The notes under the pieces are model-generated. The model was not told the DNA's origin. It searched no databases and saw nothing but the letters and a program-made list of their open reading frames with translations. 64,000 bases of DNA from Candidatus Wolfebacteria bacterium GW2011_GWE2_44_13 (GTDB lineage: Bacteria > Patescibacteriota > Minisyncoccia > UBA6257 > UBA9933): positions 5,310-69,309 of the forward strand of contig LCHW01000002.1 of NCBI GenBank assembly GCA_001000675.1, written 5' to 3'. Of the stretch, positions 20,952-47,634 are shown in pieces (the first letter of the stretch is position 1; every line of letters starts with the position of its first letter). Position numbers and translations under genes: made by a program.

Positions 20952-20982
20952 AAAAGTGCCCGTCGTACGACGGGCACTTTTT
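20952..20982. terminator. bidirectional terminator AAAAGTGCCCGTCGtaCGACGGGCACTTTTT (overlaps the trmB1 stop)
   Basis: Perfect GC hairpin flanked by A and T runs. A near-identical hairpin occurs at 25201..25230. Confidence 0.7.
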
Positions 20983-21718
20983 AGTTTGCATCAGGTAAGC
21001 CATCCCACATGATCGAAAAGACCATTTTCATCATAGCGCTAATAGTTTGGCTCTCAATAACTACAGCCCAATGCTCTTTTTCGAATGAAACAATTAATAT
21101 TTTGTCGCCATAGATCTCAATATCGGTAACAAAATGTTTGCCCGATGGGAGTAGTTTAGTTTGGCGCAGAGATGTAGCATCGGAAGAGGTTATCTCCGAA
21201 GAAGATAATGCATTGCTGATAATAGCTCGATTCGCGATGCCTTTTTCAACTCTCTTACGTATATAGTTCACTATCCATTCGCGGCCTAAAAATAGCGATC
21301 CGCTTTCGTAAGAGGCAATACTCAGAATTTCCTTATGCGTCCCTTCGATTGTACTGCTATATACACTACGCACCTCCTCGAGCGTTTCATAGAAGCGAAT
21401 TTTTGGTTTACCAAGTTCCGCATTAGATATACCGCGCAACTCGGGCAATATCTTCTCTAAGAGTGTTCGTTGGCGTTCAATAAGAGATCCAAGCGTCTCG
21501 GGGCTTGCTGCTATAAAAAGGCGCTTCTTTCCCTTTACGGTTTCCGTAAAAAGGTTTCGGGTTTTAAGATCCGAAATAATGCCATAAATAGTGCTGCGCT
21601 TGATGCCGGATTTTTTTGCAATATCTTGAATAGCGCAAGGGCCGAGTTCAAGGGAAGCTAGGTAAATACTGGCTTCTTTGTCATCCAAGCCGAGTTGTAA
21701 TAAGGATTCTTTAAGCAT
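20981..21718 (-). CDS. TrmB-family transcriptional regulator 1
   Basis: N-terminal wHTH LLQLGLDDKEASIYLASLELGPCAIQDIAKKSGIKRSTIYGIISDL plus a TrmB-like C-terminal domain. It is divergent from SBP1. Confidence 0.75.
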   Translation of the reverse strand: MLKESLLQLGLDDKEASIYLASLELGPCAIQDIAKKSGIKRSTIYGIISDLKTRNLFTETVKGKKRLFIAASPETLGSLIERQRTLLEKILPELRGISNAELGKPKIRFYETLEEVRSVYSSTIEGTHKEILSIASYESGSLFLGREWIVNYIRKRVEKGIANRAIISNALSSSEITSSDATSLRQTKLLPSGKHFVTDIEIYGDKILIVSFEKEHWAVVIESQTISAMMKMVFSIMWDGLPDAN

Positions 21719-21728
21719 ATGTATAAAA

Positions 21729-21745
21729 TGTCGATGTTTTCGACA
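21729..21745. promoter_or_regulatory. candidate TrmB1 operator TGTCGA-N6-CGACA, 10 bp upstream of the trmB1 start codon
   Basis: Inverted repeat embedded in AAATGT...ACATTT. Analogous palindromes with different core bases precede the other trmB genes. Confidence 0.45.
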
Positions 21746-21814
21746 ACATTTATATCATAATGTATCAGTGTTATAAAGTCAATATAGAAATAATATAAAA
21801 TTATGCCGAAACTA

Positions 21815-21842
21815 TTGACAAACATAAAACATATGCTACTAT
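21815..21842 (+). promoter_or_regulatory. putative sigma70-like promoter for SBP1 (TTGACA-16-TACTAT)
   Basis: A conserved AAACTATTGACAAA motif recurs upstream of several SBP genes (23907, about 36165). Confidence 0.45.
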
Positions 21843-21896
21843 GCAATTAAAGTAAAAAGTAGTCAATTTTTACAAAAATAAAGCAATATAAAAACA

Positions 21897-23021
21897 GTGA
21901 ATAAAATAACAAAAATAGTTTTAGTAGTTGGGGTAGTCGTTCTCGCGGTTGTCGGAGGATATACCGTGTATAATAAGCAGGGCGGAAGTGGTGAGCAAGG
22001 AATAATTATTGGCTCGGTACTGCCATTAACTGGGGATCTTGCTGCATACGGGGAGGGTTCGAGGAATGCTGCCATAATGGCAATAGAAGACGCAGGCATG
22101 AAGGAGAGGGTTAGGTTTATCGTAGAAGATGATAAAGGGTGCGACCCAGTGCTTGGAGTCGGAGCAGTGCAAAAATTAATTACTATAGACAAGGTGAGTG
22201 CGATATATGGACCGCTTTGCTCATCAGAAGCCCTTTCGGTGCTACCAATAACTGAAGCGGCCGGGATACCCGTTGTTTTATCGGGAGCCTCGTCAAAGAC
22301 ATTGACGGGGGCGGGTAACTACGTATTTAGGACTATAGCGTCTGATTCGGTGCGCGCCTACGCAGTTGCTAATTATGCATATGTAAAAGGGTTTAGAAAG
22401 GCGGCGTTCGTATTCGATAATAGTCAGGATGCAATAATTCAAGGGAAGAATGATGCCCAAGAAACCTTCGTGGGGGCAGGAGGAGAATCAGTGTCAGAAG
22501 AATCATTTGGAGGAAAGGATGTTGATTTCAAAGCACAGCTAAGCAAGATAAAGAGCTCGGGCGCAGATGTAGTGTTCGTTGGCGCTTTTCCTAAAACGTT
22601 GGCGCTTATCATAAAACAAGCGCGCGAGATGAAAATGAGCACACAATTTATCTCATTCGATGCGTCTGTGGATGTAAAAGAATTTTTCGTAATCGGAGGA
22701 AGCAATGTCGAGGGCGTTATTGCTCCTGCAATGGTAAAGCCGAATACGGAAGAAGCAAAGTCATTTGAAACGCGGTATAAAGCACGCTTCGGGGTAGATG
22801 CAACTATTTATGCAGCAGAGGGATATGATGCCATGGCGCTATTGCTCAAGGCAATCCAAAAGGAAGGATTGAGGGGTGATCAAATTAAAGCAGGATTACT
22901 AAAAATTGGTAATAATTACCAAGGAGCAAGCGGAATCATTACTTTTGACAGCAAAGGGGATGTTGTAAAACCGGCAGTTGTGAAGGTTGTAAAGAACGGA
23001 GTATTTGAAGAAGTAAAATAA
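21897..23021 (+). CDS. LivK-type (Peripla_BP_6) ABC substrate-binding protein 1, TM-anchored
   Basis: GTG start. TM anchor followed by GIIIGSVLPLTGDLAAYGEGSRNAAIMAIED...KGCDP...YGPLCSSEA. About 80% identical to SBP4. Confidence 0.85.
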   Translation: MNKITKIVLVVGVVVLAVVGGYTVYNKQGGSGEQGIIIGSVLPLTGDLAAYGEGSRNAAIMAIEDAGMKERVRFIVEDDKGCDPVLGVGAVQKLITIDKVSAIYGPLCSSEALSVLPITEAAGIPVVLSGASSKTLTGAGNYVFRTIASDSVRAYAVANYAYVKGFRKAAFVFDNSQDAIIQGKNDAQETFVGAGGESVSEESFGGKDVDFKAQLSKIKSSGADVVFVGAFPKTLALIIKQAREMKMSTQFISFDASVDVKEFFVIGGSNVEGVIAPAMVKPNTEEAKSFETRYKARFGVDATIYAAEGYDAMALLLKAIQKEGLRGDQIKAGLLKIGNNYQGASGIITFDSKGDVVKPAVVKVVKNGVFEEVK

Positions 23022-23026
23022 AATCT

Positions 23027-23077
23027 AAAACACCCCTGTTCGTCCGCCGATTGGCGGACGAACAGGGGTGTTTTTTT
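23027..23077. terminator. bidirectional terminator AAAACACCCCTGTTCGTCCGCCGAttGGCGGACGAACAGGGGTGTTTTTTT
   Basis: A 20-bp stem between the convergent SBP1 and trmB2 stops. Confidence 0.75.
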
Positions 23078-23810
23078 AATCTAACCGTTCCCACATAAAA
23101 TTGAAAAATATTTTAAGAGTGCTGATAATTGTCTCACTCTCGATAACAAGCGCCCATTTTTCTTTTTTCAATGATGTGATGAAGATTTTATTCGTACTAG
23201 GGTAGATCTCGATATTTGCCCAAAAAGGATTTTCTCCGGGGAAGATTCGCATTTCTCGGAACTCTTCCTTGTTTCTGGAATACACATCGCGAGAGGAGGC
23301 ATGTTCGTTCGCGATAACTTTGATAGGAATTTTTTTAGAGAGCCTTTTGGAAACGTATTCTTGTGTCCAGTCCCAGCCCATTACCTGAGTGAATTCATCG
23401 ATGTCGAGGAAGGCAAATATTTCTTTTGGGCCTTCATCAAGCAAGGAAAGGTGAATTTGTTTAATTTCTGGAAGTGTCTCAAAAAATCGTATCTTCGGCC
23501 TACCTGCTTCAATGTTAAACAAACCCTTTAGCTCCGGCATAATCTTGTCTAAGGCAGCCTGTTGGCGGACAAGAAGTCCCTTAAGCTCTTCCGGATCAGT
23601 AGCTACAAAAAGACGCTTTCGGCCACTAATAGTTTCTGAGATAAGGTTTTTGGATTTTAACTCGGAAAGGAACGTGTAGATAGTGCTTCTATTTACCCCT
23701 GACTTTTTGGAAATGTTTTGAATAGAAGAAGGGCCGAGCGACAAAGCGGCGAGGTAAATACTCGCTTCTTTTTCGTCGAGGCCTAATTGTAATAAGGTTT
23801 TTTCGAGCAT
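23076..23810 (-). CDS. TrmB-family transcriptional regulator 2
   Basis: MLEKTLLQLGLDEKEASIYLAALSLGPSSIQNISKKSGVNRSTIY...; about 55% identical to TrmB1. Confidence 0.75.
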   Translation of the reverse strand: MLEKTLLQLGLDEKEASIYLAALSLGPSSIQNISKKSGVNRSTIYTFLSELKSKNLISETISGRKRLFVATDPEELKGLLVRQQAALDKIMPELKGLFNIEAGRPKIRFFETLPEIKQIHLSLLDEGPKEIFAFLDIDEFTQVMGWDWTQEYVSKRLSKKIPIKVIANEHASSRDVYSRNKEEFREMRIFPGENPFWANIEIYPSTNKIFITSLKKEKWALVIESETIISTLKIFFNFMWERLD

Positions 23811-23840: not shown

Positions 23841-23975
23841 ATTTAAGTATACATAAGTATATATAGAGCTGTCAATACGTATCTAAAAATAAAACTGTTG
23901 AAACTATTGACAAATATAGAAACAGGGGATAAAATGACATAAAAATCAAAAGTCGTCAAAAAAGAGGACGAGCAA

Positions 23976-25169
23976 ATGGAATATGTATATGGGTGGCTGG
24001 TTAAATTGCAATCAACGAAGCCGCTCACATATTGGTCCAGTTCACTATGTCCTCCTAATGTGCATACTACAATAAAAAATATAATAGGTATAGGTATTGT
24101 CGTTGGGGTTGTTTTGGGCGGTATTGGTTTGTATAAAAACAGCCAAGGAAATTCAGGAGAGGTGGTTAAAATCGGGGTAGCGCTTCCATTAACCGGAGAA
24201 AACAGTATCTACGGAGAATCGGGAAAACGAGGAGCTGAGCTTGCGGCTGAAAAGGCAAATAAGGAAAATAGCACAAAGATTGAGCTTGTGTTTGAGGACG
24301 ATCAAATGGACCCAAAACGAACGGTCTCTGTGGTGCAAAAAATGCTAACAGTCGATAAGGTGAGCGGGCTTGTTTCGATGAGTAGCGGCCAAGCATTGGC
24401 AGCTTGTCCTTTAGCAGAGCAGGCTAAAGTAATCGCTGTGACTACAGGAAGTGCTCCGTCCATTTCGAATTGCGGAGAATACACATTTCGCATGTTTCCT
24501 TCTGATATAAATCAGGCAAAAGAAATGGCTAAGCTTCTCACGGGGAAAGGATTTAAACGGGTTGCTGTCATCTATATCAATAATGATTACGGGAAAGGTC
24601 TTGTCGAGGAGTTTAAAAAAGAATTCCAAGGAGACATTGTGGCAATCGAATCTCATGGTGCTAAAGAATCAAATTTCAGAAGTCAGCTGGCAAAAATAAA
24701 AGGAGCAAATCCTGATGTAATAGTTGCCTTCTCGTATATTCCCGAAGGGTACAGCTTGTTGAAGCAAAAAATAGAGATGCGCATGGCTCAGCCAATATTT
24801 ACTTCCGAAGGATTTAAAGACGAGAGCTTATTTGCAAATGTGGCGACAAAAGCACTGGAAAGTCTGCGTATTATTTTTGTAGCGCAGTTTAGCGGAAAGG
24901 AAACGCAAACGTATAAAGCGCGGCATGTAGAAAAATACGGGCAAGACCCGGGGATCTATTCCGATTTTATATACGATGGCGTTTTAGCAATAGCCGCTGC
25001 TATGCAAGAGTGTGCGAGCGATGATCGCGGGTGTATAAAAGATGCAATGTATCGAACAAATTTTGAAGGAGCTACTGGAATAATTAGTTTCGATGCGAAC
25101 GGCGATATAAAAGATAAGCCCTACCAGCTATATAAAGTTGAAAATGGAAAATTTGTAGAGGCTCAATAA
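23976..25169 (+). CDS. LivK-type substrate-binding protein 2
   Basis: ATG after an AAGAGGA RBS. TM anchor followed by VKIGVALPLTGENSIYGESGKRGAELAAE... (Peripla_BP_6). Confidence 0.85.
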   Translation: MEYVYGWLVKLQSTKPLTYWSSSLCPPNVHTTIKNIIGIGIVVGVVLGGIGLYKNSQGNSGEVVKIGVALPLTGENSIYGESGKRGAELAAEKANKENSTKIELVFEDDQMDPKRTVSVVQKMLTVDKVSGLVSMSSGQALAACPLAEQAKVIAVTTGSAPSISNCGEYTFRMFPSDINQAKEMAKLLTGKGFKRVAVIYINNDYGKGLVEEFKKEFQGDIVAIESHGAKESNFRSQLAKIKGANPDVIVAFSYIPEGYSLLKQKIEMRMAQPIFTSEGFKDESLFANVATKALESLRIIFVAQFSGKETQTYKARHVEKYGQDPGIYSDFIYDGVLAIAAAMQECASDDRGCIKDAMYRTNFEGATGIISFDANGDIKDKPYQLYKVENGKFVEAQ

Positions 25170-25200: not shown

Positions 25201-25230
25201 AAAAGTGCCCGTCGAACGACGGGCATTTTG
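25201..25230. terminator. terminator AAAAGTGCCCGTCGaaCGACGGGCATTTTG
   Basis: Near-duplicate of the hairpin at 20952. Confidence 0.65.
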
Positions 25231-25235
25231 CACAA

Positions 25236-25823
25236 TCAGGATAGCTCGATGCGAAACATCAGAGCGAGTAATATACCGACAAGGATGCATGCACGTATTG
25301 CATAAACAGGTGCAAGCGGGTCTACTCGCCGGTTTCTCCACGACATACAGAGAGCGATAGACGATGTTACGAGGGCAGTCCCCCACAGGACAAAGGACTC
25401 AGAATTCTGCGTAGCGGACCACAAAGACCTGATCATCGGAAAGTATCCTACAATCATAAGCCCTTGTAGAAGTAGGTTTGCCGTAGTGTGACCAGCAAAC
25501 ATCCAAATAACGACGATACCGCCAGCTGAGAAAAGGCAGTATTGGTCGAACGTGCTAAGCTCGAGTCGACTTCCTTGGAGTGTAAGTACGACGATGACAG
25601 CAAGGGTTGCAAGCACATCGGCAATATTTGCCAAGTTATTGGTTGCGTTATGTTTGCCGGCCGAGGCGAAGTACGACACAAGACTCAGGATTGATCCAAT
25701 AAGGAAGATTACCCATGAAGCAAGTCTTGGCTGCACGACGCCAGATAGCACTTGCTGGCAGTAGATAAACATTGTTACTGCGGACAAGGCAGTAAATAGT
25801 ACGACTAACAAAGCGCGCCGCAT
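25236..25823 (-). CDS. polytopic membrane protein, hypothetical (moderately GC-rich)
   Basis: 195 aa with about 6 predicted TM helices. No family assignment. Confidence 0.45.
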   Translation of the reverse strand: MRRALLVVLFTALSAVTMFIYCQQVLSGVVQPRLASWVIFLIGSILSLVSYFASAGKHNATNNLANIADVLATLAVIVVLTLQGSRLELSTFDQYCLFSAGGIVVIWMFAGHTTANLLLQGLMIVGYFPMIRSLWSATQNSESFVLWGTALVTSSIALCMSWRNRRVDPLAPVYAIRACILVGILLALMFRIELS

Positions 25824-25942
25824 GGGGCCTCCTTTTGCGAGAGTAAGATAGTAAGAACTGAATGTAATATGAAATATTTTTTAACAAGTGTCAAATAAAT
25901 TAATAAAAATAAGCCTCGATGCAATCGGGGCTTATTTTTTAT

Positions 25943-26007
25943 TCCCAATGTAACGTCTTGCTTGCCTTGTCGAAGTTTTTAACGAAGACAGGCGATGACG
26001 TTACATT
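25943..26007 (+). repeat. 65-bp repeat copy 2, candidate sRNA or leader element 82 bp upstream of SBP3
   Basis: 63 of 65 positions identical to copy 1. The internal 11-bp inverted repeat is perfect here. Flanked by hairpin-T structures at 25903..25940 and 26018..26052. Confidence 0.7.
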
Positions 26008-26109: not shown

Positions 26110-27252
26110 ATGGATACACAGCAAGCAGCGGGAATAGGTGGAAAGAAAATCGCATTGTGGGCGGTGATTGCATTAGTGGTAATCGGAGGCGGTTGGATGG
26201 TAATAAAAAAGCCATCGCAGGTAAACGCAGAACCAATTAAAATAGGGTTCATCGCGCCGCTGACGGGAGATGCTGGCAGCTACGGCGTAAATGCCAAGGC
26301 AGCGGCAGAACTTGCAGTAGAAGAAATAAATAGTATGGGAGGAATTAACGGAAGGACTATTCAGCTAATTGCAGAAGATGGAAAGTGTACCGGAAAAGAC
26401 GCAAGCTCCGCGGCAAATAAATTGATAAATATCGACAAGGTAACGGCCATTGTCGGAGGGTTTTGCTCAGGCGAAACAATGGCATTTACTGACCTAGCAG
26501 AACAGACAAAAACCATCGTAATTTCCGAAGCTTCGTCAAACCCGGCAATTACAAATGCCGGAGACTATATATTTAGAGACTATGCATCTGATACGGCACA
26601 GGGAAAAGCTGCAGCAGAATTTATCTATAACAAGCTAGGTAAAAAGAAGGTTGCTGTGTTGTACGTAAATATCGATTGGGGCAAAGGGGTAAAGGATGTA
26701 TTTATCAGTGAGTATAAGAAGCTAGGAGGGGAAATAGTTATAGAAGAAAGTTATACGCAGGGAAGCAGGGATATGCGGTCGCAACTCGCTAAAGTTAAGC
26801 AGTCTAACCCTGATGTTTTGTATTTCCTGAGCTTTACGGATGATGCGGTTATTGGGCTAAAGCAGGCAAAGACCCTCGGCCTAAATCTTCCTATTGTCGG
26901 AGGAGATGCGTTTGATGGGCCTCAGTTTTATTCAGATCCAATAGCGGATGGAATTATGTACGTGGCATCCCTCGTACCCTCAAATGAAGCTTTTGAAGCA
27001 AAAATGGCTACCAAAACGGGGAGTGATGTGATAAATGCCGGCGCTCCTCAGGCATACGACGCAGTCAAGATACTGGGTGATGTTATGCGAAAGGTAGGAA
27101 CAAATACAGAGCTAATAAAAAATGCCTTGTACGAAGTGAAGGATTATCAAGGGGTTTCGGGTACTATCGGGTTTGATAGTAATGGAGACCTTGCAACGCC
27201 AAACTTAATTATTAAATTGATTAAGGATGGAAAAGCAGAACAATTGAAATAA
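26110..27252 (+). CDS. LivK-type substrate-binding protein 3 (no paired TrmB)
   Basis: IKIGFIAPLTGDAGSYGVNAKAAAELAVEEINSMGGINGRTIQLIAEDGKCTG... The track start at 26089 is TTG; the in-frame ATG is at 26110. Confidence 0.85.
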   Translation: MDTQQAAGIGGKKIALWAVIALVVIGGGWMVIKKPSQVNAEPIKIGFIAPLTGDAGSYGVNAKAAAELAVEEINSMGGINGRTIQLIAEDGKCTGKDASSAANKLINIDKVTAIVGGFCSGETMAFTDLAEQTKTIVISEASSNPAITNAGDYIFRDYASDTAQGKAAAEFIYNKLGKKKVAVLYVNIDWGKGVKDVFISEYKKLGGEIVIEESYTQGSRDMRSQLAKVKQSNPDVLYFLSFTDDAVIGLKQAKTLGLNLPIVGGDAFDGPQFYSDPIADGIMYVASLVPSNEAFEAKMATKTGSDVINAGAPQAYDAVKILGDVMRKVGTNTELIKNALYEVKDYQGVSGTIGFDSNGDLATPNLIIKLIKDGKAEQLK

Positions 27253-27258: not shown

Positions 27259-27300
27259 TAAAACCACCCGTTCGCCATCTGGCGAACGGGTGGTTTTTTA
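27259..27300. terminator. bidirectional terminator AAAACCACCCGTTCGCCAtctGGCGAACGGGTGGTTTTTT
   Basis: Identical core to the terminator at 29352. Confidence 0.75.
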
Positions 27301-27311: not shown

Positions 27312-28055
27312 TCATTTCAAAAACTTCCACAGCAATTCAAACGACATACGGTGGAGCTGGTGGATCTCGGGGCTTTCGATAATAACCCCCATGAAGTTTT
27401 CCTTGAACGAAATAAGAGCGACCTTATTCGCATAAATTTCGGCATCTGCAATAAAAGGGAAATCTTTACCGGGTACGATCTTTATCTCGCGGAGTTCTTT
27501 TACGTCATTTTTTTGCCACTCACGCGCAAGGGGGGAGTCGGGAGCGATAACTTTGATTCGAATTTTCTTTGCGACACGTTGACGGATATAATCGTTCGAA
27601 AATTCTTCAGGGACTAATTTGTCGAAATCGGTGAGACCGGCATAGTCGAGTATGGTATCCCCTGAATTACACGAAGTGAGCGTATCGGCAAATAGTTCCC
27701 TTGCACCACCGAGACCCTCAAAGTAGGTAATTTTAGGCTTGCTAGGGAGAATGCTTTGGAGTGCTGCAAATTGTGGTAGAGCGCGTTCGAGGCGCTGGAT
27801 CTTCATATCAAGCCCCGTCTTAAGAGATCGGGGGTCGTCAATATAAAAAAAGCGCTTCGATTTTCTGCTTCCAGCCTGGACAACGCCATCCGCCATAAGC
27901 TCGGGGATAAGATTGTATACTGTGGTTCGCTTAATGCCGGTTTTACGGGAAATATCCAGTATAGAGGCTTCTCCGAGTTCTAAAATAGCCAAGTAAATCT
28001 TGGATTTTTTAGGGCTGTAGCCAATGTTTTCGAGGAGATCTTCTAGTCTATTCAT
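27312..28055 (-). CDS. TrmB-family transcriptional regulator 3
   Basis: LLENIGYSPKKSKIYLAILELGEASILDISRKTGIKRTTVYNLI... Confidence 0.75.
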   Translation of the reverse strand: MNRLEDLLENIGYSPKKSKIYLAILELGEASILDISRKTGIKRTTVYNLIPELMADGVVQAGSRKSKRFFYIDDPRSLKTGLDMKIQRLERALPQFAALQSILPSKPKITYFEGLGGARELFADTLTSCNSGDTILDYAGLTDFDKLVPEEFSNDYIRQRVAKKIRIKVIAPDSPLAREWQKNDVKELREIKIVPGKDFPFIADAEIYANKVALISFKENFMGVIIESPEIHQLHRMSFELLWKFLK

Positions 28056-28058: not shown

Positions 28059-28078
28059 ATGTCTACCATTTTAGACAT
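28059..28078. promoter_or_regulatory. candidate TrmB3 operator ATGTCTA-N6-TAGACAT (perfect 7-bp arms)
   Basis: Lies 4 bp upstream of the trmB3 start codon, in the region divergent from SBP4. Confidence 0.45.
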
Positions 28079-29351: not shown

Positions 29352-29390
29352 AAAACCACCCGTTCGCCATCTGGCGAACGGGTGGTTTTT
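29352..29390 (+). terminator. intra-operon terminator/attenuator between SBP4 and livH
   Basis: AAAACCACCCGTTCGCCAtctGGCGAACGGGTGGTTTTT. livH starts 34 nt downstream on the same strand. Confidence 0.65.
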
Positions 29391-29423
29391 AGTTCAAAGC
29401 GAAAACCTGTATAATTAAACGCA

Positions 29424-33151: not shown

Positions 33152-33169
33152 TGACGATAAAAACCGTCA
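33152..33169. promoter_or_regulatory. candidate TrmB4 operator TGACG-N8-CGTCA
   Basis: Perfect 5-bp inverted repeat inside AAATGACG...CGTCAAATTT, 12 bp upstream of the trmB4 start. Confidence 0.45.
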
Positions 33170-36079: not shown

Positions 36080-36096
36080 TGTCAAGTTTTCTGACA
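36080..36096. promoter_or_regulatory. candidate TrmB5 operator ATGTCA-N6-TGACA
   Basis: Inverted repeat 30 bp upstream of the trmB5 start. Confidence 0.4.
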
Positions 36097-36223
36097 ACAC
36101 AATATAGAAAATAGTGCATTATATATGCCTATAAATCAAGTAAATAAAAAGTGACAGAAACTATTGACAAAAGCAACTGCGTGTGCTAGTATATCGACAT
36201 AGTCATTAATAACAACTCATAGC

Positions 36224-37363: not shown

Positions 37364-37367
37364 AAAC

Positions 37368-37400
37368 ACTAAAAAATCCGCTTCGGCGGATTTTTTAGTG
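37368..37400. terminator. bidirectional terminator CACTAAAAAATCCGCttcgGCGGATTTTTTAGTG (family member 1 of 4)
   Basis: Extended 14-bp palindrome including the A/T runs, between the convergent SBP6 and Lrp-type regulator. Confidence 0.75.
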
Positions 37401-39762: not shown

Positions 39763-39767
39763 ATGAA

Positions 39768-39800
39768 ACTAAAAAATCCGCCTCGGCGGATTTTTTAGTG
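39768..39800. terminator. bidirectional terminator AACTAAAAAATCCGCCtcgGCGGATTTTTTAGTGG (family member 2)
   Basis: Near-identical to the terminators at 37368, 41836 and 43991. Confidence 0.75.
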
Positions 39801-39804
39801 GATG

Positions 39805-40596
39805 CTATGCTTTTCCCATTTCCCAAAGCATTTCAAAAAATGCGCGGTAGTTGCTTGCAACTCGTTCTGATTTAACGATGTACACAAGGGGTGGTGTGAG
39901 AAATGTATAAAAAGAAACACTATCCTTTCTAATAATCATATGTGTCTCACCCTTAGGAAGACTACTCATAAAGCGGTACTCCTGATGGGCAAGTGTGCCG
40001 ACGTACTTCTGATAAAGCGGTCGCTCGTCAGCAGTCCCGAGATATTTTATCCGCGCCTTTTTTCTTGCGCGTATTGCGAGGTACGGAGCGAGTGTATCTC
40101 CCATAAGTTCGCTAAACGCTGCTGTTGCACCGCCGATAATATATTCCTCCGCCCCCTCTTCTTCGGACTGCGCGCGTAAAAGCTCGTATTCCTGTATTGC
40201 TCGCGTGCCTTGGATAACCTCAAAGTCTTGCTCGTTGCCAATAGCACTTATCTGGTTAAGCGATCGGGCAAGATCGCTAGCGGCGAGCGCTTTTTTCCTG
40301 CCAATAGTCTCGATTATTTGAGGAGAGTGTGCTTTATATTTTGTCTGCTTCCCGCGGAGTACTTCCTCGATAAGACCCTCACGAATAAGCGCGGGGAGGG
40401 CGGTATAAACGTACTGCCGATGTAGCGATGTTATTGAAGCTATTTGCGATACACCAGCTTCAGAGCCACTTTGAAGAAGATGGAGATAAATAAGCGCTTC
40501 GTTACGGGAAAACCCAAGCGTAACAAGCTCAGCAATAAGGGCGTTTGCGTGCTCTTCGCTGATAAGCGATTTTTGAGATGGGTTTCTAAGTGTCAT
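39805..40596 (-). CDS. TrmB-family transcriptional regulator 6 (divergent, longer N-terminus)
   Basis: ALIYLHLLQSGSEAGVSQIASITSLHRQYVYTALPALIREGLI wHTH plus a TrmB-like C-terminal region. Confidence 0.6.
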   Translation of the reverse strand: MTLRNPSQKSLISEEHANALIAELVTLGFSRNEALIYLHLLQSGSEAGVSQIASITSLHRQYVYTALPALIREGLIEEVLRGKQTKYKAHSPQIIETIGRKKALAASDLARSLNQISAIGNEQDFEVIQGTRAIQEYELLRAQSEEEGAEEYIIGGATAAFSELMGDTLAPYLAIRARKKARIKYLGTADERPLYQKYVGTLAHQEYRFMSSLPKGETHMIIRKDSVSFYTFLTPPLVYIVKSERVASNYRAFFEMLWEMGKA

Positions 40597-40741: not shown

Positions 40742-41830
40742 ATGAATAATAAAAAATTAGTAATTGCATTGATGGCCATCGTAGTTGTTGGCATAGCAGG
40801 TACGTATTTCTTCAAGGGGAATGGCGCGGCTACGGAAAATGAGGCAGGTGACGTAATAAACATCGGAGCAATTCTATCCCTTACGTCATACGGCGCGAGT
40901 GATGGAGAAAGTATCAAGAATGGACTTGAACTAGCAAGAAAAGATTTAATAAAGGAGAACATAATTGTAAATATAGATTATTTCGACGACGGCACTGATC
41001 CAAAGCAAGTTGTATCAGGAGTGCAGTATATGAAGTCAAAAAATATAGACATCGTGTTTGGTCCAATTTGGAGCTATCTCGGAGATGCGGCGCTTGCCGT
41101 AGTGGGAGGGTCAAATATAACATTGCTCGCCCCTTCATTAACAAGCGAAGTAGTGCAGCAGGCTTCATCGCAAATAGTATTTGGTCAAGCAAAGAACGCA
41201 GAAAAATTACCAGCGACAACCGCTTGGATGCAAGAGAACAATATTAAGAAGCCGGCAATCATCGTAAATCAGATAGCATGGGGGAATGTACATGCTACTA
41301 TGTTTGCCGAGGCAGTTAAAAATGCGGGCGGTATTGTGGTGTTAAATGAAGAGATCGGGTTTGGAAAAGAAAAAGAAACGTTGCCAGGGCTTATTGTAAA
41401 GGCAAAGTTTTTGGGAGCTGACGCAATATTGTGGGCAGGGTCAAACGACGGAGAGGTGATTATCATAAGCGAAATGCAAAAGCTTGGTATGAAGATGCCA
41501 CTCTTCGCGGACGAGGGCGTGATGACAGCGTTTAACAGTGGGCTTATTTCAAAAGATATAACAGTACCGGTGTATACGTGGAACAAGGCAATGCACCCCG
41601 AGTTCGTTGCTAAATTTAAGGCTGAATATAATAAAGAGCCAGATCATTATGCAGATGCAGCATATGATATGTTAATTGCGGCAGCAAAAACAGTGAGTAA
41701 AAATGGAACGAGTAATCTCAAGGCAAACCTAAACAGCCTTAACTATACTGGCTATGCAGGGACATATCAGTTTGATGAAAAGGGCGATATTAAGGGAGGA
41801 GATTGGAAGGTTGTAAAAATAACAAAATAA
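40742..41830 (+). CDS. LivK-type substrate-binding protein 8 (most divergent)
   Basis: TM anchor followed by INIGAILSLTSYGASDGESIKNGLELARKDL.... Shorter than the others (362 aa). Confidence 0.7.
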   Translation: MNNKKLVIALMAIVVVGIAGTYFFKGNGAATENEAGDVINIGAILSLTSYGASDGESIKNGLELARKDLIKENIIVNIDYFDDGTDPKQVVSGVQYMKSKNIDIVFGPIWSYLGDAALAVVGGSNITLLAPSLTSEVVQQASSQIVFGQAKNAEKLPATTAWMQENNIKKPAIIVNQIAWGNVHATMFAEAVKNAGGIVVLNEEIGFGKEKETLPGLIVKAKFLGADAILWAGSNDGEVIIISEMQKLGMKMPLFADEGVMTAFNSGLISKDITVPVYTWNKAMHPEFVAKFKAEYNKEPDHYADAAYDMLIAAAKTVSKNGTSNLKANLNSLNYTGYAGTYQFDEKGDIKGGDWKVVKITK

Positions 41831-41835: not shown

Positions 41836-41870
41836 CACTAAAAAATCCGCCGAGGCGGATTTTTTAGTGG
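41836..41870. terminator. bidirectional terminator CACTAAAAAATCCGCCgaGGCGGATTTTTTAGTGG (family member 3)
   Basis: Same motif as the other family members. Confidence 0.75.
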
Positions 41871-41878: not shown

Positions 41879-42613
41879 TTATTTAAGCAAATTCCACATA
41901 GTTTCGAAGATGGCTTTGAGGCCGTCATAAATTTTCTTACTTTCGATAATTAAACCCAAATCTTCTTTATAGGAAATGATGCCCACTTTATTGTCTCCAT
42001 AGATCTTTATCTCAATATCAAAAATCTTGAAAGCGGCATCGGAGACGAACTTCGTTGTTGTAATAGCGTTTTCGCGCTGATGTTTTGAAAACTCTCTATT
42101 TGCAGCGGTATCAGGGACAATAGCCCGAGCCCATATTTTGCGCTTAACGCGTTCGGGTAAATAATAGCCTTCGAAATAATCTTCACTCAAGTTGATGTAC
42201 GGGTAGGGGAATAGCGTGAGTATTTCTTGGTCAGGATACTGGAGTGTATCTTCGAAAACTTCCTTTACCCCCTCGAGCCCCTCAAAGTATTTGATCTTAG
42301 GCTTTTTATCCAACAGGTTCATGAGCGAAAGGAGCTCGGGCATGGCCTCTTCTATTGATTGCTTCTTCGCCTCGAGTGCCTCGGGGATTTTTTTAGGACT
42401 CTCAGCATAAAAAACAGTGCGCTTCTTAAGGCGGCCTTGGCTCACGAGTCCGCGCCGTTTAAGGAGCTCTATTGTTTCATAGACAGTGGAGCGTTTAATG
42501 CCCGTCTTTTTTACAAGTTGAGCAATCGTTGCTTCGCTCAATTCTAAAAGGGCTAAATAAATATCAGCTTCTTTTTTAGATAGGCCCGCAGCCTGTAATT
42601 TCTTTGAAATCAT
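41879..42613 (-). CDS. TrmB-family transcriptional regulator 7
   Basis: KKLQAAGLSKKEADIYLALLELSEATIAQLVKKTGIKRSTVYETIELLKRRGLV... Confidence 0.75.
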   Translation of the reverse strand: MISKKLQAAGLSKKEADIYLALLELSEATIAQLVKKTGIKRSTVYETIELLKRRGLVSQGRLKKRTVFYAESPKKIPEALEAKKQSIEEAMPELLSLMNLLDKKPKIKYFEGLEGVKEVFEDTLQYPDQEILTLFPYPYINLSEDYFEGYYLPERVKRKIWARAIVPDTAANREFSKHQRENAITTTKFVSDAAFKIFDIEIKIYGDNKVGIISYKEDLGLIIESKKIYDGLKAIFETMWNLLK

Positions 42614-42628
42614 ATATTTGATGTAAAA

Positions 42629-42647
42629 GTGACGATAATTCCGTCAC
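42629..42647. promoter_or_regulatory. candidate TrmB7 operator GTGACG-N7-CGTCAC (perfect 6-bp arms)
   Basis: 16 bp upstream of the trmB7 start codon. Confidence 0.45.
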
Positions 42648-42810
42648 TACTTTAAATATACAATAAGTGACAAAAAAGTCAATGTTTAAGGCATAAAAGC
42701 GATATGCTTATAATAATTATTTTTTAAATTAAATACATAAATTGACCAATTGACACAATATTGATAACGTGTTGTTGTAAGGTTTAAATAACAAAAATAA
42801 TAAAAAATAT

Positions 42811-43962
42811 ATGAACAAAAACAAAAACATCGTTATCGCATTCGTAGTTGTTCTCGTGGTGTTGGTCGCAGGGTATGTGCTCAACAGCAATCAGCAGGTT
42901 GCGCAAACAAATGAGCCGTATAAGATAGGCTATATAGGACCTATGACAGGGGGCGTGGCGATATTAGGAGAAGAGGCTTCTAAGTCAATCCAAATTGCGG
43001 TTGATGAAGCAAATGCAAATGGAGGAATAAACGGACGACAGATCGAGTTTATCGTAGAAGATGACCAGTACGATACAGCGAAGTCAATCAGCGCATACGA
43101 AAAATTGGTAAACAGTGATGGTGTTGATACGATTGTCATGTCTACCTACGGAGGCGTTATGGCCTTGGCAGAGCGGGCAAAGAACGACAATGTGATGATT
43201 GTTGATTCCTTGGATTGTGATCAGGCACTCGCCAATCTTCCAGAGAACATTTTCTGTATTGCTAAGGAAACAAATGACTTGGCAGATGTAATCGCTGACT
43301 ATGCAAAGGAACAGGGATATAAGAATATCGGAATCTTGCATTCTACAGTTGATAACTTCATGCAGTCTGTTTCTGATGAATTCGTAGTACGCGTAGGTGA
43401 TAAGGCTTCTGTGCAGGTAGAGAGCTACCAGCCAGGAACAACCGACTTCAAGACATCATTGCTTAAGTTCAAGGATAAGGATGCAATCGTATTTCTTGGA
43501 TATGATGAAGTCGGAATTGCTATCAAAGAAGCAAAGAGCTTGAATGTAGGTAAGAATTACTTGACGATTCCTACTGTTGCAACTACGCCTTCTATACAGG
43601 CAGCTGCAGGAAAGGCAATCGATGGTATTCACTTCTCATTCTATGCTCCGCTTGAAGCAAACCCAGTTGCTACAAAGTTCTATAGCGACTTCAAGGCAAA
43701 GTATGAAAGAACTCCTTACGTTTTTGTCGCAAGCGACCAGGCATATGACGCAGCAAAGATCTTGATTACCGAGGTATTGCCAAAGGTTACTGCTGATACA
43801 AAGGCAGAGCAGTTGAGCCAGAAGATTACCGCCATGGAAAAGGTAAAGAACTTTAAGGGGGTAACAGGGACACTTACTATGAAGGCTGATGGCCGAATAA
43901 GTGGAATCCTTGTACGCTTGTTCAAGCTAGAGAACATGATGCCAGTGTTTGTTGGAAAATAA
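42811..43962 (+). CDS. LivK-type substrate-binding protein 9
   Basis: YKIGYIGPMTGGVAILGEEASKSIQIAVDEANANGGINGRQIEFIVEDDQYD... Confidence 0.85.
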   Translation: MNKNKNIVIAFVVVLVVLVAGYVLNSNQQVAQTNEPYKIGYIGPMTGGVAILGEEASKSIQIAVDEANANGGINGRQIEFIVEDDQYDTAKSISAYEKLVNSDGVDTIVMSTYGGVMALAERAKNDNVMIVDSLDCDQALANLPENIFCIAKETNDLADVIADYAKEQGYKNIGILHSTVDNFMQSVSDEFVVRVGDKASVQVESYQPGTTDFKTSLLKFKDKDAIVFLGYDEVGIAIKEAKSLNVGKNYLTIPTVATTPSIQAAAGKAIDGIHFSFYAPLEANPVATKFYSDFKAKYERTPYVFVASDQAYDAAKILITEVLPKVTADTKAEQLSQKITAMEKVKNFKGVTGTLTMKADGRISGILVRLFKLENMMPVFVGK

Positions 43963-43990: not shown

Positions 43991-44026
43991 AACTAAAAAA
44001 TCCGCCTCGGTGGATTTTTTAGTGGG
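43991..44026. terminator. terminator AACTAAAAAATCCGCCtcgGTGGATTTTTTAGTGGG (family member 4)
   Basis: Same motif with a G-T wobble in the stem. Confidence 0.7.
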
Positions 44027-44109: not shown

Positions 44110-44127
44110 TATGACGGCATAAAGCGT
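44110..44127. promoter_or_regulatory. candidate TrmB8 operator TGACG-N8-CGTCA, about 110 bp upstream of trmB8
   Basis: Same half-site class as the trmB4 site. Confidence 0.35.
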
Positions 44128-44235
44128 CATTTTTCGAGATAGATAAAACATAGGGAATAAAAGGGTGGAGTGCTCGCTTGGTTTAAAAATGGCGAAGTGG
44201 GGTGAACAAAATTAAGGATTAATGGTACAAACAAT

Positions 44236-45015
44236 ATGTTAAGTAAAAAGCAATTCGAAGAGATACGGGCAGGCCTTTTACAATTGGAATTTACCGATAA
44301 TGAAATTGCAGTCTATGTATCTATATTACAAGATAGGGGTTCAAGTATCCCGTCCGTTGCAAAAGAAACTGAGCTGAGTAGAGGGACTGTATATGACGTT
44401 GTGGAAAAGCTAAAAGGCAAAGGGTTTATAGCGGAGGCGAAAAAAGGTAAAAAAAGAAAATTCGTTGCTGAAAATCCGAATAATAAGTTGTATCTCTTGC
44501 TCGATGAAAAACATCGAGACTTGCAGCGGTCTAAGCAGATAGTAGAGCAGATTTTGCCTATCTTGAATGTGTTCACTGAGCAGGATGCTTTCCGGCCACA
44601 AGTGAGGGTATATGAAGGCGAGAAAGGATTTAGGCAGATATGGGATGAAGTTTTTTCCTATGAAGGGAAAAACTTTCTGAGCATTACTAGAGTTGAGACA
44701 TTTTTAACATTTATGGGACAGGAGTTTCTTGATGAGTTGCAGGAGCGAAAAGCAAAACTCGGGATTACGAGCCGAGCCATTAATGAGGATTCAGCGGCTG
44801 GGCATCGTACGCAAGATAGCGATAAAAAATATTTGCGGGAAACAAGATTGGCACCGAAAGAATTTCAGTTCCCCTCGTCCGAAATAATTTTTGGAGACAA
44901 TATAGCAATGTTCTCTACACGAAAAGAAAATATTATTGTTGTGATTGAGAGTAAGGATCTTGCGGAAGCACATAGAACATATTTTGAAATGATGTGGCAA
45001 TTTATCGGTAGGTAA
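44236..45015 (+). CDS. TrmB-family transcriptional regulator 8 (co-directional with its SBP)
   Basis: LLQLEFTDNEIAVYVSILQDRGSSIPSVAKETELSRGTVYDVVEKLKGKGFI... Confidence 0.7.
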   Translation: MLSKKQFEEIRAGLLQLEFTDNEIAVYVSILQDRGSSIPSVAKETELSRGTVYDVVEKLKGKGFIAEAKKGKKRKFVAENPNNKLYLLLDEKHRDLQRSKQIVEQILPILNVFTEQDAFRPQVRVYEGEKGFRQIWDEVFSYEGKNFLSITRVETFLTFMGQEFLDELQERKAKLGITSRAINEDSAAGHRTQDSDKKYLRETRLAPKEFQFPSSEIIFGDNIAMFSTRKENIIVVIESKDLAEAHRTYFEMMWQFIGR

Positions 45016-45039
45016 ATTCTAAAAGGGTGTACGGTCTCT

Positions 45040-46161
45040 TTGAAAAATTATGTGGATAAAAAAAGAAAAAATATACTAAGGGTAGGCGTTATTATTATTA
45101 TTGTGATTGTAGGGCTGTATGTATTTGTGCAAAAGGGTGTAGTAGGTGAAGTATCAATAGGGGTTATATTACCGTCAACGGGCAAGGCGGCAAATATAGC
45201 AGAGGATGTAAGGAATGGCTTGGAAATGGCGAAGGGAGAGTTAACTGGCGGAAAGAAAATAAAATTAGTGTATCAGGATGATGGATGTGACCCGAAAAAG
45301 GCGATTTCTGCGTATCAGTTTTTACATGAAGTTGAAAAGGTGAATATTGTCATTGGGCCACTTTGCTCGACTGCTGCTTTGGTAGTAGCTCCGTTAGCGC
45401 AAAAGGATGGGGTCGTCATGATAACGCCTGCTTCTGCGACTGATAAGCTGAGTTCGATAGGAGATTTTATATTTAGAAATCATACACACGATAAGGCGGA
45501 GTTAGAGGCTATAGCACCGTATATAAAAGAGCGATATAAAAAAATTGCAGTTATATACGATAAAACAAATGATGCGTATGTTGAATATGATACATTTTTT
45601 AAGACTAATTTAGGCGAAAGCAACGTTGTGAGTGTGCCAGTGACCGGAGGCATGGGGGATTATAAAACAGACTTGTTAAAAATAAAGGCCCAGCTAAAAG
45701 ATATTGATGCAGTATTTGTTGGGGTACTCTCTAAGGACGCGGTTACTCTTGTGAACGAAATGAATCAATTGGGAATTAAAAAACAAATACTGGGTTCAAA
45801 GTTATTAGGAACATCGGATTTTGTAAACGGGGTAGGGGTTGAGACGGCAGAGGGAATAGTATATATGGAGGCAGATTATGATAAAAATACTGAACCGAAT
45901 TTTTGGAATAAATATAATGAGAAATTCGGGAAAATTCCTCCTACATGGGTGCCACAGGCATATGACACAGTAAAGATTTTAGATCTGGCGATTGCGAGTT
46001 GCGGTTCGGACAAGTCCGTGTGCATAAAAGATTATCTGCACAATCTCAAGGACTATCCCGGGGCGGCGGGAAAGTTAACGTTTGCCGCGAATGGTGATGC
46101 CATTAAGAAAATTGCAATTAAACAAGTGCAAAACGGACAATTCATAAAAATAAGTGAATAA
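45040..46161 (+). CDS. LivK-type substrate-binding protein 10
   Basis: TTG start 10 nt after an AAAAGGGTG RBS. TM anchor followed by VSIGVILPSTGKAANIAEDVRNGLEMAKGEL...YQDDGCDP. Confidence 0.75.
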   Translation: MKNYVDKKRKNILRVGVIIIIVIVGLYVFVQKGVVGEVSIGVILPSTGKAANIAEDVRNGLEMAKGELTGGKKIKLVYQDDGCDPKKAISAYQFLHEVEKVNIVIGPLCSTAALVVAPLAQKDGVVMITPASATDKLSSIGDFIFRNHTHDKAELEAIAPYIKERYKKIAVIYDKTNDAYVEYDTFFKTNLGESNVVSVPVTGGMGDYKTDLLKIKAQLKDIDAVFVGVLSKDAVTLVNEMNQLGIKKQILGSKLLGTSDFVNGVGVETAEGIVYMEADYDKNTEPNFWNKYNEKFGKIPPTWVPQAYDTVKILDLAIASCGSDKSVCIKDYLHNLKDYPGAAGKLTFAANGDAIKKIAIKQVQNGQFIKISE

Positions 46162-46165
46162 ACAT

Positions 46166-46194
46166 AAAACCAGCCCTCAACGGGGCTGGTTTTA
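46166..46194 (+). terminator. terminator AAAACCAGCCCcaacGGGGCTGGTTTTAT
   Basis: GC hairpin followed by a T run, after SBP10. Confidence 0.65.
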
Positions 46195-46266
46195 TATGGT
46201 AGAATAAACCATTCATGCAAAAGGATTTTCGATTAGGGATTATAGTGAACGTGCTAGTATAAAAAT

Positions 46267-46812
46267 ATGAGCGAGCAAAAGGAAAAGAAAAATTACGCAT
46301 TTGTAGATGGGCAAAATCTATTTATGGGCACAGCTAAGCGAGCGGTTGATCCATGGACGATAAGCCTCGCCCGTTTTCGCGTGTATCTCGAACAAAAATA
46401 TAATGTCGTCAACGCTTACTATTTTTTAGGATTTGTGCAGGAAACTAATCAGGAGCTCTACGAAGAAATACAAAAGGCTGGTTTTGTGCTTATATTTAGA
46501 GAGCATAATCCAGCGATGATTGGGAAGAAAAAAGGGAATGTTGATACCGATATCATTTTTCACATTATGAAAAAGATGTATAAAAAAGAAGAGTTTGACA
46601 ATATCATCCTTGTGTCTGGGGATGGGGATTATAAGCTCGTCGTCGATTTTCTCATTGAAGAGAATCGGTTCGAGAAAATACTTTTTCCATATAAAAAGTT
46701 TGCGTCTTCGTTGTATAAAAAACTAGGCTCCAAGTATTTTGATTATCTTGAAAATGGAGATATTAAAAACAAGATAGAAGTAAAAAAAGAAAAGGGCTCC
46801 TTAGGTAATTAA
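46267..46812 (+). CDS. NYN/LabA-like domain protein (paralog 1)
   Basis: YAFVDGQNLFMG...NVDTDIIFHIMK...ILVSGDGDYKLVVDFL, the acidic motifs of the NYN nuclease fold. Confidence 0.65.
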   Translation: MSEQKEKKNYAFVDGQNLFMGTAKRAVDPWTISLARFRVYLEQKYNVVNAYYFLGFVQETNQELYEEIQKAGFVLIFREHNPAMIGKKKGNVDTDIIFHIMKKMYKKEEFDNIILVSGDGDYKLVVDFLIEENRFEKILFPYKKFASSLYKKLGSKYFDYLENGDIKNKIEVKKEKGSLGN

Positions 46813-46866
46813 CCGTTCGGATCCCTTTTCGTCTGAATACCTGTATTATCAGCAAATTGACAGAAA

Positions 46867-47634
46867 ATGTCAAGAAAATGCGGAACTATGCACCAAAACT
46901 CTCTCATACAACTAAAAAATGCATCCGTGCGATACGGAGGCGTGCATGCGCTCGAAGATGTCGACGTGCATATTAATGCCGGAGAGGTTGTTGTAGTTAT
47001 GGGTCCGAACGGTGCAGGGAAATCTACCGTGCTAAAGGCGCTCTATGGCATAGAACCACTCACTAAAGGATCTGTAATCTACGAGGGCACACAGATACAG
47101 CCAAAACCGCATGAAATGATAAAGCGAGGGGTGGTGTTTGTTCCGCAAGGGCGGCGGGTATTTCCAAGCCTCACGGTAAGGGAAAATATAGAAATCGGTG
47201 GCGTGGTTGCAGGTAAAAAAGGATTGGAGTTGGAAAAGAAAATTGATGAGGTAGTGGATTTATTTCCCGCATTGAAAAATAAGCTCAAACGATCGTCGGG
47301 AATATTATCGGGAGGGGAGCAGCAGATGGTCGCGTTAGCGCGAGGGCTAATGGCTGACCCTAAAATACTTCTCCTCGACGAGCCTTCACTCGGGCTTGCG
47401 CCAAAGATAGTAAAGGAAGTATTTGAAAAAATAGCTGAGATCAATAAAACAAAAGGACTTGCAGTAGTTATCGTTGAACATAATATTAAATCGATATTAG
47501 CGGTTGCGCATAGGGCATACGTCCTCGACAAAGGAAGGGTTGCGGCAGAGGGAGATGCAAAAGAAATAGCCGGGAGTGATATTCTAGAGCGAGTATTTTT
47601 GGGAAAAGAGGCGAAAGAAGAGCACACTGCTTGA
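46867..47634 (+). CDS. livF: branched-chain amino acid ABC transporter ATP-binding protein LivF
   Basis: Walker A GPNGAGKST, signature LSGGEQQMVALARGL, Walker B ILLLDEPSLGLAP. The size fits LivF. An alternative in-frame ATG lies at 46888. Confidence 0.8.
   Translation: MSRKCGTMHQNSLIQLKNASVRYGGVHALEDVDVHINAGEVVVVMGPNGAGKSTVLKALYGIEPLTKGSVIYEGTQIQPKPHEMIKRGVVFVPQGRRVFPSLTVRENIEIGGVVAGKKGLELEKKIDEVVDLFPALKNKLKRSSGILSGGEQQMVALARGLMADPKILLLDEPSLGLAPKIVKEVFEKIAEINKTKGLAVVIVEHNIKSILAVAHRAYVLDKGRVAAEGDAKEIAGSDILERVFLGKEAKEEHTA

Follow-up and report, generated by a model that had tools for sequence, protein, structure and literature searches.

Ten membrane-anchored LivJ-like receptor genes, short TrmB-like regulators and one dispersed set of LivHMGF genes in a Wolfebacteria genome

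We analyzed a 64-kb stretch (hereafter the window) of contig LCHW01000002.1 from Candidatus Wolfebacteria GW2011_GWE2_44_13, a genome which is also labelled ACD_81 and whose source is the Rifle groundwater metagenome. Window positions 20981–47634 (~27 kb) hold an array of genes for binding proteins, regulators and the subunits of a LivHMGF-type ATP-binding cassette (ABC) importer. Genes were taken from the open reading frame (ORF) listing and its translation and were then scanned with Pfam. The array contains ten Peripla_BP_6 proteins (here called receptors, S1–S10), eight regulators with a PF01978 winged helix (R1, R2, R4, R5, R6, R8, R9 and R10, numbered after the partner receptor), one further regulator (Z), and livH, livM, livG and livF, which matched gene for gene the list given by an earlier reading of the same DNA, the first-pass annotation. 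The Peripla_BP_6 and PF01978 assignments, both above the Pfam cut-off, bore out its claim of ten LivK-type genes, eight of them paired with a TrmB-family regulator, seven divergently and one co-directionally. It was also right that S7 is paired instead with a tandem Lrp/AsnC-type regulator and that no regulator adjoins S3. Ten paralogues within 26.6 kb are not a chance pattern. The flanks of the window consist of housekeeping genes (gyrA, S1, comEC, tRNA synthetases, gatA and trmD).

All ten receptor genes are on the plus strand, and their products match Peripla_BP_6 above the Pfam cut-off with E values from 5.5e-24 to 7.6e-63: S1 (21897–23021, E=2.4e-48), S2 (23976–25169), S3 (26110–27252, E=7.6e-63), S4 (28222–29346, in an ORF that opens at 28156), S5 (33253–34386), S6 (36224–37363), S7 (38620–39762), S8 (40742–41830), S9 (42811–43962) and S10 (45040–46161). 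The receptors are membrane-anchored, because an N-terminal hydrophobic helix was present in all ten and a lipobox in none. Pairwise identity was 19–34%, except for S1 and S4 (74%). When the family profile was compared with the PDB, the best matches were amino-acid-binding HAAT proteins, with 4GNR on top (E=8e-74), followed by 3TD9, 4N0Q, Atu2422 and LivJ (1Z15, 1e-50). By sequence, S7, which had the joint-best Peripla_BP_6 score, is among the most LivJ-like of the ten. None of the receptors reached the NCBIfam cut-off of the LivJ/K subfamily (141.6 versus 477 bits).

For the ligand pockets, the ten receptors were aligned with LivJ, Atu2422 and 4GNR, and the columns of the LivJ contacts for the alpha-amino and alpha-carboxylate groups (Y18, S79, A100–T102, Y150, Y202 and E226) were read. 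The known contacts of LivJ fell at the expected positions, and Atu2422 and 4GNR gave the same columns. S2, which has a canonical amino-acid pocket, and S3 retain Tyr18, Ser79, Ala/Ser-Ala/Ser-Thr/Ser, aromatic residues at 150 and 202, and Glu/Asp226. S1 and S4 retain most of the contacts, with nearly the same residues in both. Several contact positions are altered in S5–S8, nearly all are gone in S9 (Leu, Tyr, Leu-Asp-Cys, Phe, Tyr and Pro instead), and S10 has Lys in place of the acidic residue 226 that is expected to hold the alpha-ammonium group. Since contact residues differ or are lost, the predicted pockets are not identical between paralogues, S1/S4 excepted, and for some receptors the ligand may be something other than an alpha-amino acid. 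When S6, S9 and S10 were searched singly against the PDB, 4GNR was the top match each time, as it was for S7, and no ligand class could be assigned to S6, S9 or S10 in this way.

The eight TrmB-like regulators are about 245–263 amino acids long, and the PF01978 winged helix (E from 5e-10 to 2e-14) is their sole significant Pfam domain. Seven are encoded on the minus strand, divergently from the partner receptor gene: R1 (20981–21718, 245 amino acids, E=1.5e-11), R2 (23076–23810, 244 amino acids), R4 (27312–28055), R5 (32385–33140), R6 (35271–36047, the likely start in an ORF reaching 36119), R8 (39805–40596, the most divergent member) and R9 (41879–42613). R10 (44236–45015, plus strand) lies co-directionally 24 nt upstream of S10 and forms with it a two-gene operon (44236–46161). 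A profile of the eight regulators matched Pyrococcus furiosus TrmB in the PDB (3QPH, E=4e-14) over residues 6–150 only, and TrmBL2 at 2e-3; the Tyr aligned with the DNA-recognition residue Y50 of TrmB is invariant in all eight. Pfam found no match to the effector domain PF11495 in any of the eight. With the NCBIfam models, TrmB scored 34.6 bits (cut-off 600) and TrmBL1 33.8 bits (cut-off 650), with only residues 4–95 matching, and no equivalog-level NCBIfam name was obtained for any regulator or receptor. The model of R2 contained only the PLD-like first subdomain of the TrmB effector domain, the beta-barrel subdomain being absent. It has been reported that six of the seven sugar contacts of TrmB are in this second, beta-barrel subdomain, and that the 264-amino-acid TrmBL2 and TrmBL3 do not have it (PMC4158304). 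The regulators have the TrmBL2/TrmBL3 architecture: besides the winged helix and a long helix there is a single PLD-like domain, without the HKD catalytic motif. The first-pass annotation had proposed C-terminal ligand sensing as in archaeal TrmB; this does not follow, because the subdomain with most of the sugar contacts is missing. Mean identity among the regulator paralogues was 24% in the PLD-like domain versus 38% in the winged helix, which is only a hint from sequence that the PLD-like domain is a possible sensor.

These regulators belong to a large family: 4,042 representative clusters were counted at E≤1e-30, and the number rises to 11,780 at E≤1e-10. Some members of the family, P0146 (1061 amino acids), P0148 (787) and P0151 (510), consist of one winged helix and up to seven tandem PLD-like modules of ~135 amino acids, each module ending in ...F(E/D)xLWNQ; to our knowledge, no such multi-module regulator has been described. 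The remaining regulator of the array, Z (37410–38432, minus strand, 340 amino acids), has two HTH_AsnC/HTH_24 domains and is divergent from S7. Its second half aligned to positions 5–124 of the 149-position Lrp model below the cut-off, and no match to PF01037, the ligand-binding RAM domain, was found at E≤0.01. The Z–S7 pair recurs in two other loci (L003 and L013).

The translocator genes are all on the plus strand and are scattered among the receptor genes: livH (29424–30293, BPD_transp_2 E=7.6e-40) and livM (30296–31165, BPD_transp_2 E=6.3e-52) follow S4, livG (34485–35219, ABC_tran with a BCA_ABC_TP_C tail) follows S5, and livF (46867–47634, ABC_tran) is at the far end. The locus has the parts of a HAAT importer, namely a pair of BPD_transp_2 subunits, a pair of ABC ATPases, of which LivG carries the branched-chain C-terminal motif, and receptors of the Peripla_BP_6 fold. 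By tblastn each of the four genes has one copy in the window, as the first-pass annotation had said, and searches with every array protein gave no further receptor or regulator fragments there. No other liv genes were found in the window flanks or in a further 10 kb on each side, where a second livHMGF set would have given receptors a transporter of their own; the downstream 10 kb were read in a syntenic relative strain, and the upstream 10 kb on a contig of another assembly that carries an identical window protein. There is one translocator set for ten receptors within ~84 kb.

The sequence CCTGTATWAT precedes both livH, as a −10-like element (CCTGTATAAT, 29406–29415, 9 nt before the start codon), and livF (CCTGTATTAT, 46840–46849, 18 nt before the start codon). 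These are its only two occurrences in the 64 kb, and two or more matches were obtained in 1 of 100 shuffles. Similarly, in many related genomes a TATA(A/C)T element is located 8–25 nt before livH, beyond the preceding terminator. Because of these elements, the translocator genes seem to have their own promoters, without regulator genes. The CCTGTATWAT sequence may be a shared extended −10 element or a control site for the dispersed translocator genes.

Scanning of species-representative (GTDB) genomes with LivM yielded 45 loci, which were annotated with hidden Markov models of the window proteins. All except one belonged to Patescibacteria (Wolfe-, Taylor-, Nomura- and Campbellbacteria, and Paceibacterota), with LivM identities of 57–66% (66% for the best). 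The outlier, a metagenome-assembled genome of Bdellovibrionota, had a LivM that was 37% identical and only livG, livH and livM at the locus. Nearly all patescibacterial loci showed the interleaved layout, with receptor genes, some accompanied by a divergent TrmB-like gene and some not, ahead of livH and in the livM–livG and livG–livF gaps, and in several loci even between livH and livM. For example, the order in the complete Campbellbacteria genome CP011215.1 is R<S> R<S> S<R> H M G R<S> F. The comparative loci contained 171 receptor genes and 57 TrmB-like genes, and 47 of the latter lay next to a receptor gene in divergent orientation, at a distance of at most 450 bp. When five distant homologues of the regulators were sampled, two were in liv arrays, one was beside an ABC/FtsX pump and two were upstream of ruvC and ATP-grasp genes. 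The window, with ten receptors and eight TrmB-like regulators, is an extreme example of a common lineage-wide design and not a one-off.

The strongest sigma-70-like sites of the region are in the intergenic spacers, where back-to-back TTGACA-type promoters are predicted for regulator and receptor genes. Such sites were located for R1 (21782–21754), R5 (33212–33183), R6 (36085–36057, inside the long ORF) and R9 (42682–42655), and for S1 (21815–21842), S2 (23907–23935) and S6 (36164–36192). Every receptor gene is followed by a strong predicted hairpin terminator, often bidirectional. These are at 23027–23074 for S1, 25201–25229 for S2, 27260–27297 for S3, 29352–29389 for S4 (identical to that of S3, and standing between S4 and livH), 34406–34421 for S5 (a hairpin), 37367–37400 for S6, 39768–39799 for S7, 41836–41869 for S8 and 43992–44023 for S9. 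With these predicted signals, each receptor gene is an independent transcription unit.

Seven of the eight TrmB-like regulators also have a dyad (inverted repeat), which lies either between about +1 and +30 relative to the predicted start of regulator transcription or on the −35 box. The dyads of R1 (TGTCGA-N5-TCGACA, 21729–21745) and R4 (ATGTCTA-N6-TAGACAT, 28059–28078) are at the predicted transcription start, that of R6 (TGTCA-N7-TGACA, 36080–36096) overlaps the −35 box, and that of R10 (ATGACG-N8-CGTCAT, 44111–44130) is just past a promoter-like site; the others are TGTTG-N10-CAACA upstream of R2, TGACG-N8-CGTCA at R5 (33152–33169) and AGTGACG-N7-CGTCACT at R9 (42628–42648). Among 40 intergenic regions drawn from all loci, GC-armed dyads at most 50 nt from the regulator start occurred in 15, versus 3.35 ± 1.66 in shuffles, and dyads on the receptor-proximal side in 4. 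In different genomes, regulators that are related and resemble each other in the recognition helix also have dyads that are related. The placement of these candidate sites has the geometry of autoregulation, and in R10–S10 the same candidate site would govern the receptor gene too.

We then considered whether regulator and receptor travel together. Within the window, regulator and receptor distances showed no significant correlation (Mantel p = 0.12), and strict co-divergence, which the first-pass annotation had suggested checking for, was not seen. S1 and S4 are 74% identical and R1 and R4 only 32%; therefore, at least one receptor has been duplicated or replaced without its regulator. Across genomes the result was different. 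Among 55 cassettes from all loci, there were 47 whose regulator has a related regulator elsewhere; the receptor paired with the nearest of these was the best receptor match for 28 of the 47 and was among the top three for 41, and the cross-genome Mantel r of 0.72 was reached by none of 2000 permutations. As judged from these comparisons, regulator type tracks receptor type across genomes. Cassette types are thus old, stable pairs whose number and order change.

Such changes were visible between close strains. The relative strain GCA_003508115.1, whose shared proteins are 93–99% identical to those of the window, keeps the backbone comEC ... R1–S1, H, M, G, R6–S6, Z–S7, R8–S8 and R9. It does not have the block R2–S2–membrane protein–S3–R4–S4, nor the toxin-antitoxin-like pair with R5–S5 (the membrane protein and the pair are described below), and it has other cassettes, one with one regulator and two receptors. 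Its additional genes include a DUF3800 gene, a methyltransferase gene and an AAA_21/RloB pair, and the array locus also collects toxin-antitoxin and defence-type genes. DNA alignment of the two strains placed several insertion/deletion junctions at the hairpins ending receptor genes: a 53-nt S7 terminator region (39762–39814) occurs twice in the relative strain, flanking its extra block, and another junction is inside the S8 terminator. Near-identical hairpin families are found in non-adjacent cassettes (the terminators of S6, S7, S8 and S9, and also those of S3 and S4). The pattern of junctions fits gain and loss by recombination between repeated terminators. The S6 orthologue of the relative strain is split into ORFs of 56 and 322 amino acids (L003 13477–14656, L004 4450–5588 and L005 4430–5568); its presence in three independent assemblies suggests a real frameshift and a decaying receptor gene.

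Taken together, we consider it rather probable that the locus encodes a HAAT (LivHMGF) ABC importer with many receptors, one translocator and local regulators, built in a way typical of the lineage. We infer docking of all ten receptors on LivHM, control of the receptor genes by the regulators and small-molecule sensing by the PLD-like domain. In the mechanism we propose, the single LivH/LivM/LivG/LivF translocator would be transcribed from its own promoters and would be served by ten membrane-anchored LivJ-like receptors with different pockets, whose genes would be separate transcription units, each with a sigma-70-type promoter and a strong hairpin terminator. Most receptor genes are linked to a dedicated short TrmB-like protein, a dimer of which probably binds the cassette-specific dyad found at the regulator's promoter or transcription start. 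The R10–S10 site would control both genes; in the divergent pairs, the receptor promoter ~80–110 bp away could be reached via activation, looping or spreading. The cell would then display only those receptors that suit the available solutes while keeping one pore and motor, and cassettes of regulator and receptor would be gained and lost between close strains, often at repeated terminator hairpins. The first-pass annotation had read the array as a multiplexed uptake system of regulator-gated receptors feeding one translocator. Its multiplexing part agrees with the single translocator in ~84 kb, the independent receptor units and the diverged pockets; the gating of receptors is conjectural, with the dyads located at the regulators' own promoters.

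Several observations weigh against this interpretation. No second copy or half-site of a regulator's dyad was found by inspection near the partner receptor promoter; because of this, we infer receptor control in the divergent pairs from the conserved pairing only. The short stems may just as well form RNA hairpins in the 5' leaders of the regulators, and two of them scored as weak terminator-like sites. About two thirds of the receptor genes in related loci have no adjacent regulator and some arrays of 6–10 receptors carry none, so that the design can do without a regulator. Part of the linkage between partners across genomes could be simple inheritance of neighbouring genes. With regard to the translocator, livM loci are doubled in 2 of the genomes behind the 45 loci, and the single translocator set was counted within ~84 kb. 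Besides, the regulators do not have the sugar-binding subdomain of TrmB, and TrmBL2, the nearest architecture, is a ligand-independent chromatin protein. It is abundant and binds both coding and intergenic DNA (PMC4158304).

A bolder version of the proposed importer, in which the array is an exchangeable repertoire of sensor-plus-receptor cassettes swapped among Paceibacteria strains through recombination at shared terminator hairpins and the PLD-like domain is a previously unrecognised small-molecule sensor module, appears unlikely to us. If true, the cassette set would record the host-derived or environmental solutes on which each strain lives.

The regulators might instead be TrmBL2-like, autoregulated DNA-binding or nucleoid-type proteins without small-molecule input, the receptor genes being constitutive or otherwise controlled and adjacency reflecting co-inheritance. 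Both the short architecture without a beta-barrel and the position of the dyads, found at the promoters of the regulators and not at those of the receptors, would agree with it, as would the many arrays that function without any regulator and the occurrence of the family in unrelated contexts. However, this does not account well for the divergent orientation of 47 of the 57 regulators of liv loci towards a neighbouring receptor gene, or for a receptor type that is predictable from regulator type across genomes. Cassette-specific dyads and variable recognition helices also argue for sequence-specific binding, and in the R10–S10 operon at least the site would control the receptor. We regard this possibility as quite improbable.

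Some receptors might bypass LivHMGF. They could serve an episymbiont as surface sensors, as scavenging sponges or in interaction with a host, or they could work with a transporter encoded at another place. Yet bona fide HAAT transport receptors are the nearest match for all ten (4GNR on top for the family profile and for S6, S7, S9 and S10 singly), their genes are interleaved with livH, livM, livG and livF in dozens of genomes, and the sharing of LivHMGF by LivJ and LivK in E. coli is an established precedent. What suggests a role outside this transporter is the absence in S9 and S10 of the acidic residue and other alpha-amino-acid contacts, and a receptor set that, like variable surface repertoires, differs between near-identical strains amid defence and toxin-antitoxin genes. 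We think that there is little chance of such a role.

As mentioned above, several strain junctions coincide with shared palindromic hairpins, the 53-nt hairpin region is a direct repeat around an extra block, and hairpin families are common to non-adjacent cassettes. These features resemble an integron-like or actively mobile cassette system whose 3' hairpins serve as recombination sites. However, no integrase or recombinase was found in the scanned ORFs of the window or in the annotated neighbourhood (not every small ORF was scanned), and we therefore do not assign the array to the integrons. Each hairpin is a perfect GC stem between A and T runs, as is typical of bidirectional terminators, and homologous recombination between repeats suffices for the junctions, which makes this explanation very unlikely. 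Finally, redundancy by recent tandem duplication without functional diversification, which fits S1/S4 with their high identity and nearly same pocket, is rejected for all other pairs (19–34% identity, differing pocket positions, and cassette types with orthologues in other genera) and is hardly credible for the array.

With regard to the proposed LivHMGF importer, comparable systems are known. In the HAAT family (TC 3.A.1.4), LivJ and LivK of E. coli share LivHMGF, and BraC and BraC3 of Rhizobium share BraDEFG. As in these systems, several Peripla_BP_6 receptors would share one translocator here. In contrast to them, the array has ten receptors instead of two or three, which are membrane-anchored and not periplasmic, the translocator genes are split among the receptor genes, most receptors have private regulators and the cassettes are strain-variable. 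Borrelia burgdorferi uses one OppBCDF for OppA1-5, and pneumococcal AmiA, AliA and AliB use AmiCDEF. Separately expressed binding proteins on one permease in a reduced-genome organism are common to those systems and the array, but the former belong to the peptide-uptake ABC family and do not have a one-to-one local regulator for each receptor.

The regulators can be compared with archaeal TrmB of Thermococcus and Pyrococcus, a local repressor of a trehalose/maltose binding-protein-dependent ABC operon (PMC4158304). The winged helix with the recognition Tyr, the long helix, the PLD-like first subdomain and the location beside a binding-protein-dependent importer are the same; the lack of PF11495 and of the beta-barrel, the bacterial sigma-70 promoters and the receptors of amino-acid instead of sugar type are different. 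The short architecture is shared with the 264-amino-acid archaeal paralogues TrmBL2 and TrmBL3 (PDB 5BPD), whereas here many divergent paralogues occur per genome, each by a specific gene and with a cassette-specific dyad. Such candidate dyads argue for specific, not chromatin-type, DNA binding by the regulators.

The first-pass annotation had called the arrangement non-textbook, which goes too far. It is lineage-wide in Patescibacteria, has been in public genomes for years and is near the founding paradigm of the TrmB family, since TrmB first came to light as the regulator of an ABC system with a binding protein (PMC4158304). Our literature search gave no paper on TrmB-type regulators in the candidate phyla radiation (CPR, Patescibacteria) and no relevant one on liv-type transporters in Parcubacteria. 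Several receptors on one ABC translocator with local regulators are already known. The new features are the scale of ten receptors, the translocator split among cassettes, the one-to-one short TrmB-like regulators, the strain turnover and the lineage-wide typicality; the advance would be one of scale, modularity and lineage, not of kind.

Patescibacteria have tiny genomes with few regulators and almost no amino-acid biosynthesis, and most of them are unculturable. If the genome is ~0.8–1 Mb, as a 789-kb contig of a close relative suggests, the ~27 kb for ten receptors and nine local regulators would be ~3% of it. The recurrence of the design in Wolfe-, Taylor-, Nomura- and Campbellbacteria points to selective and regulated uptake of various amino-acid-like solutes as a central part of their lifestyle, and the receptor ligands, once known, would give direct clues to cultivation media and to the solutes that the cells obtain from a host or from the environment. 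With at least 4,000 representative clusters at E≤1e-30, the short TrmB-like family seems to be one of the main regulator families of these bacteria, and we found no paper discussing it there. The array offers a useful and testable way into the nutrient uptake and gene regulation of Patescibacteria that have not been cultivated.

Three insertions that are apparently unrelated to transport interrupt the array. A toxin-antitoxin-like pair (31230–32364, plus strand) between livM and R5 consists of an HTH_3 and SocA_Panacea antitoxin-like gene followed by a small overlapping ORF; it is outside the transport system, and the relative strain has its DUF3800 gene at that position. An NYN-domain gene (46267–46812, plus strand), wedged between S10 and livF, is also outside the transport system; a second NYN-domain (predicted RNase) gene is located at 62811–63344. 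The third insertion, divergent from S3, encodes a membrane protein of 195 amino acids with about six predicted membrane helices (25236–25823, minus strand). Neither Pfam nor NCBIfam gave a match for it, the relative strain does not have it, and its membership in the transport system is uncertain.

The conserved 65-bp element that the first-pass annotation had placed by S3 is real, but its length is 80–84 nt (25924–26007, plus strand), and its second copy (20859–20942, 94–95% identical) is at the left array edge and not before another receptor gene. The core of the repeat folds into a long hairpin (−17 to −25 kcal/mol), and each copy is located between two terminator-like hairpins. The repeat is also present in the relative strain near the left array edge (L003 4199–4245 and 4843–4896) and absent from the 45 more distant loci. 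An Rfam search of 20000–48500 at a permissive threshold gave nothing credible, so the repeat is not a known RNA family. Elsewhere in the window, an ORF with a weak match to LAGLIDADG_3 (homing-endonuclease-like, 15169–15942) is immediately upstream of tRNA-Leu (15951–16033), and three small T4SS-pilin-like genes (3972–6509, minus strand) are beside an SBP_bac_1 binding protein. Just upstream of the window (L056 1–8419) is a gene for a giant RCC1/WD40-repeat protein of more than 4,200 amino acids.

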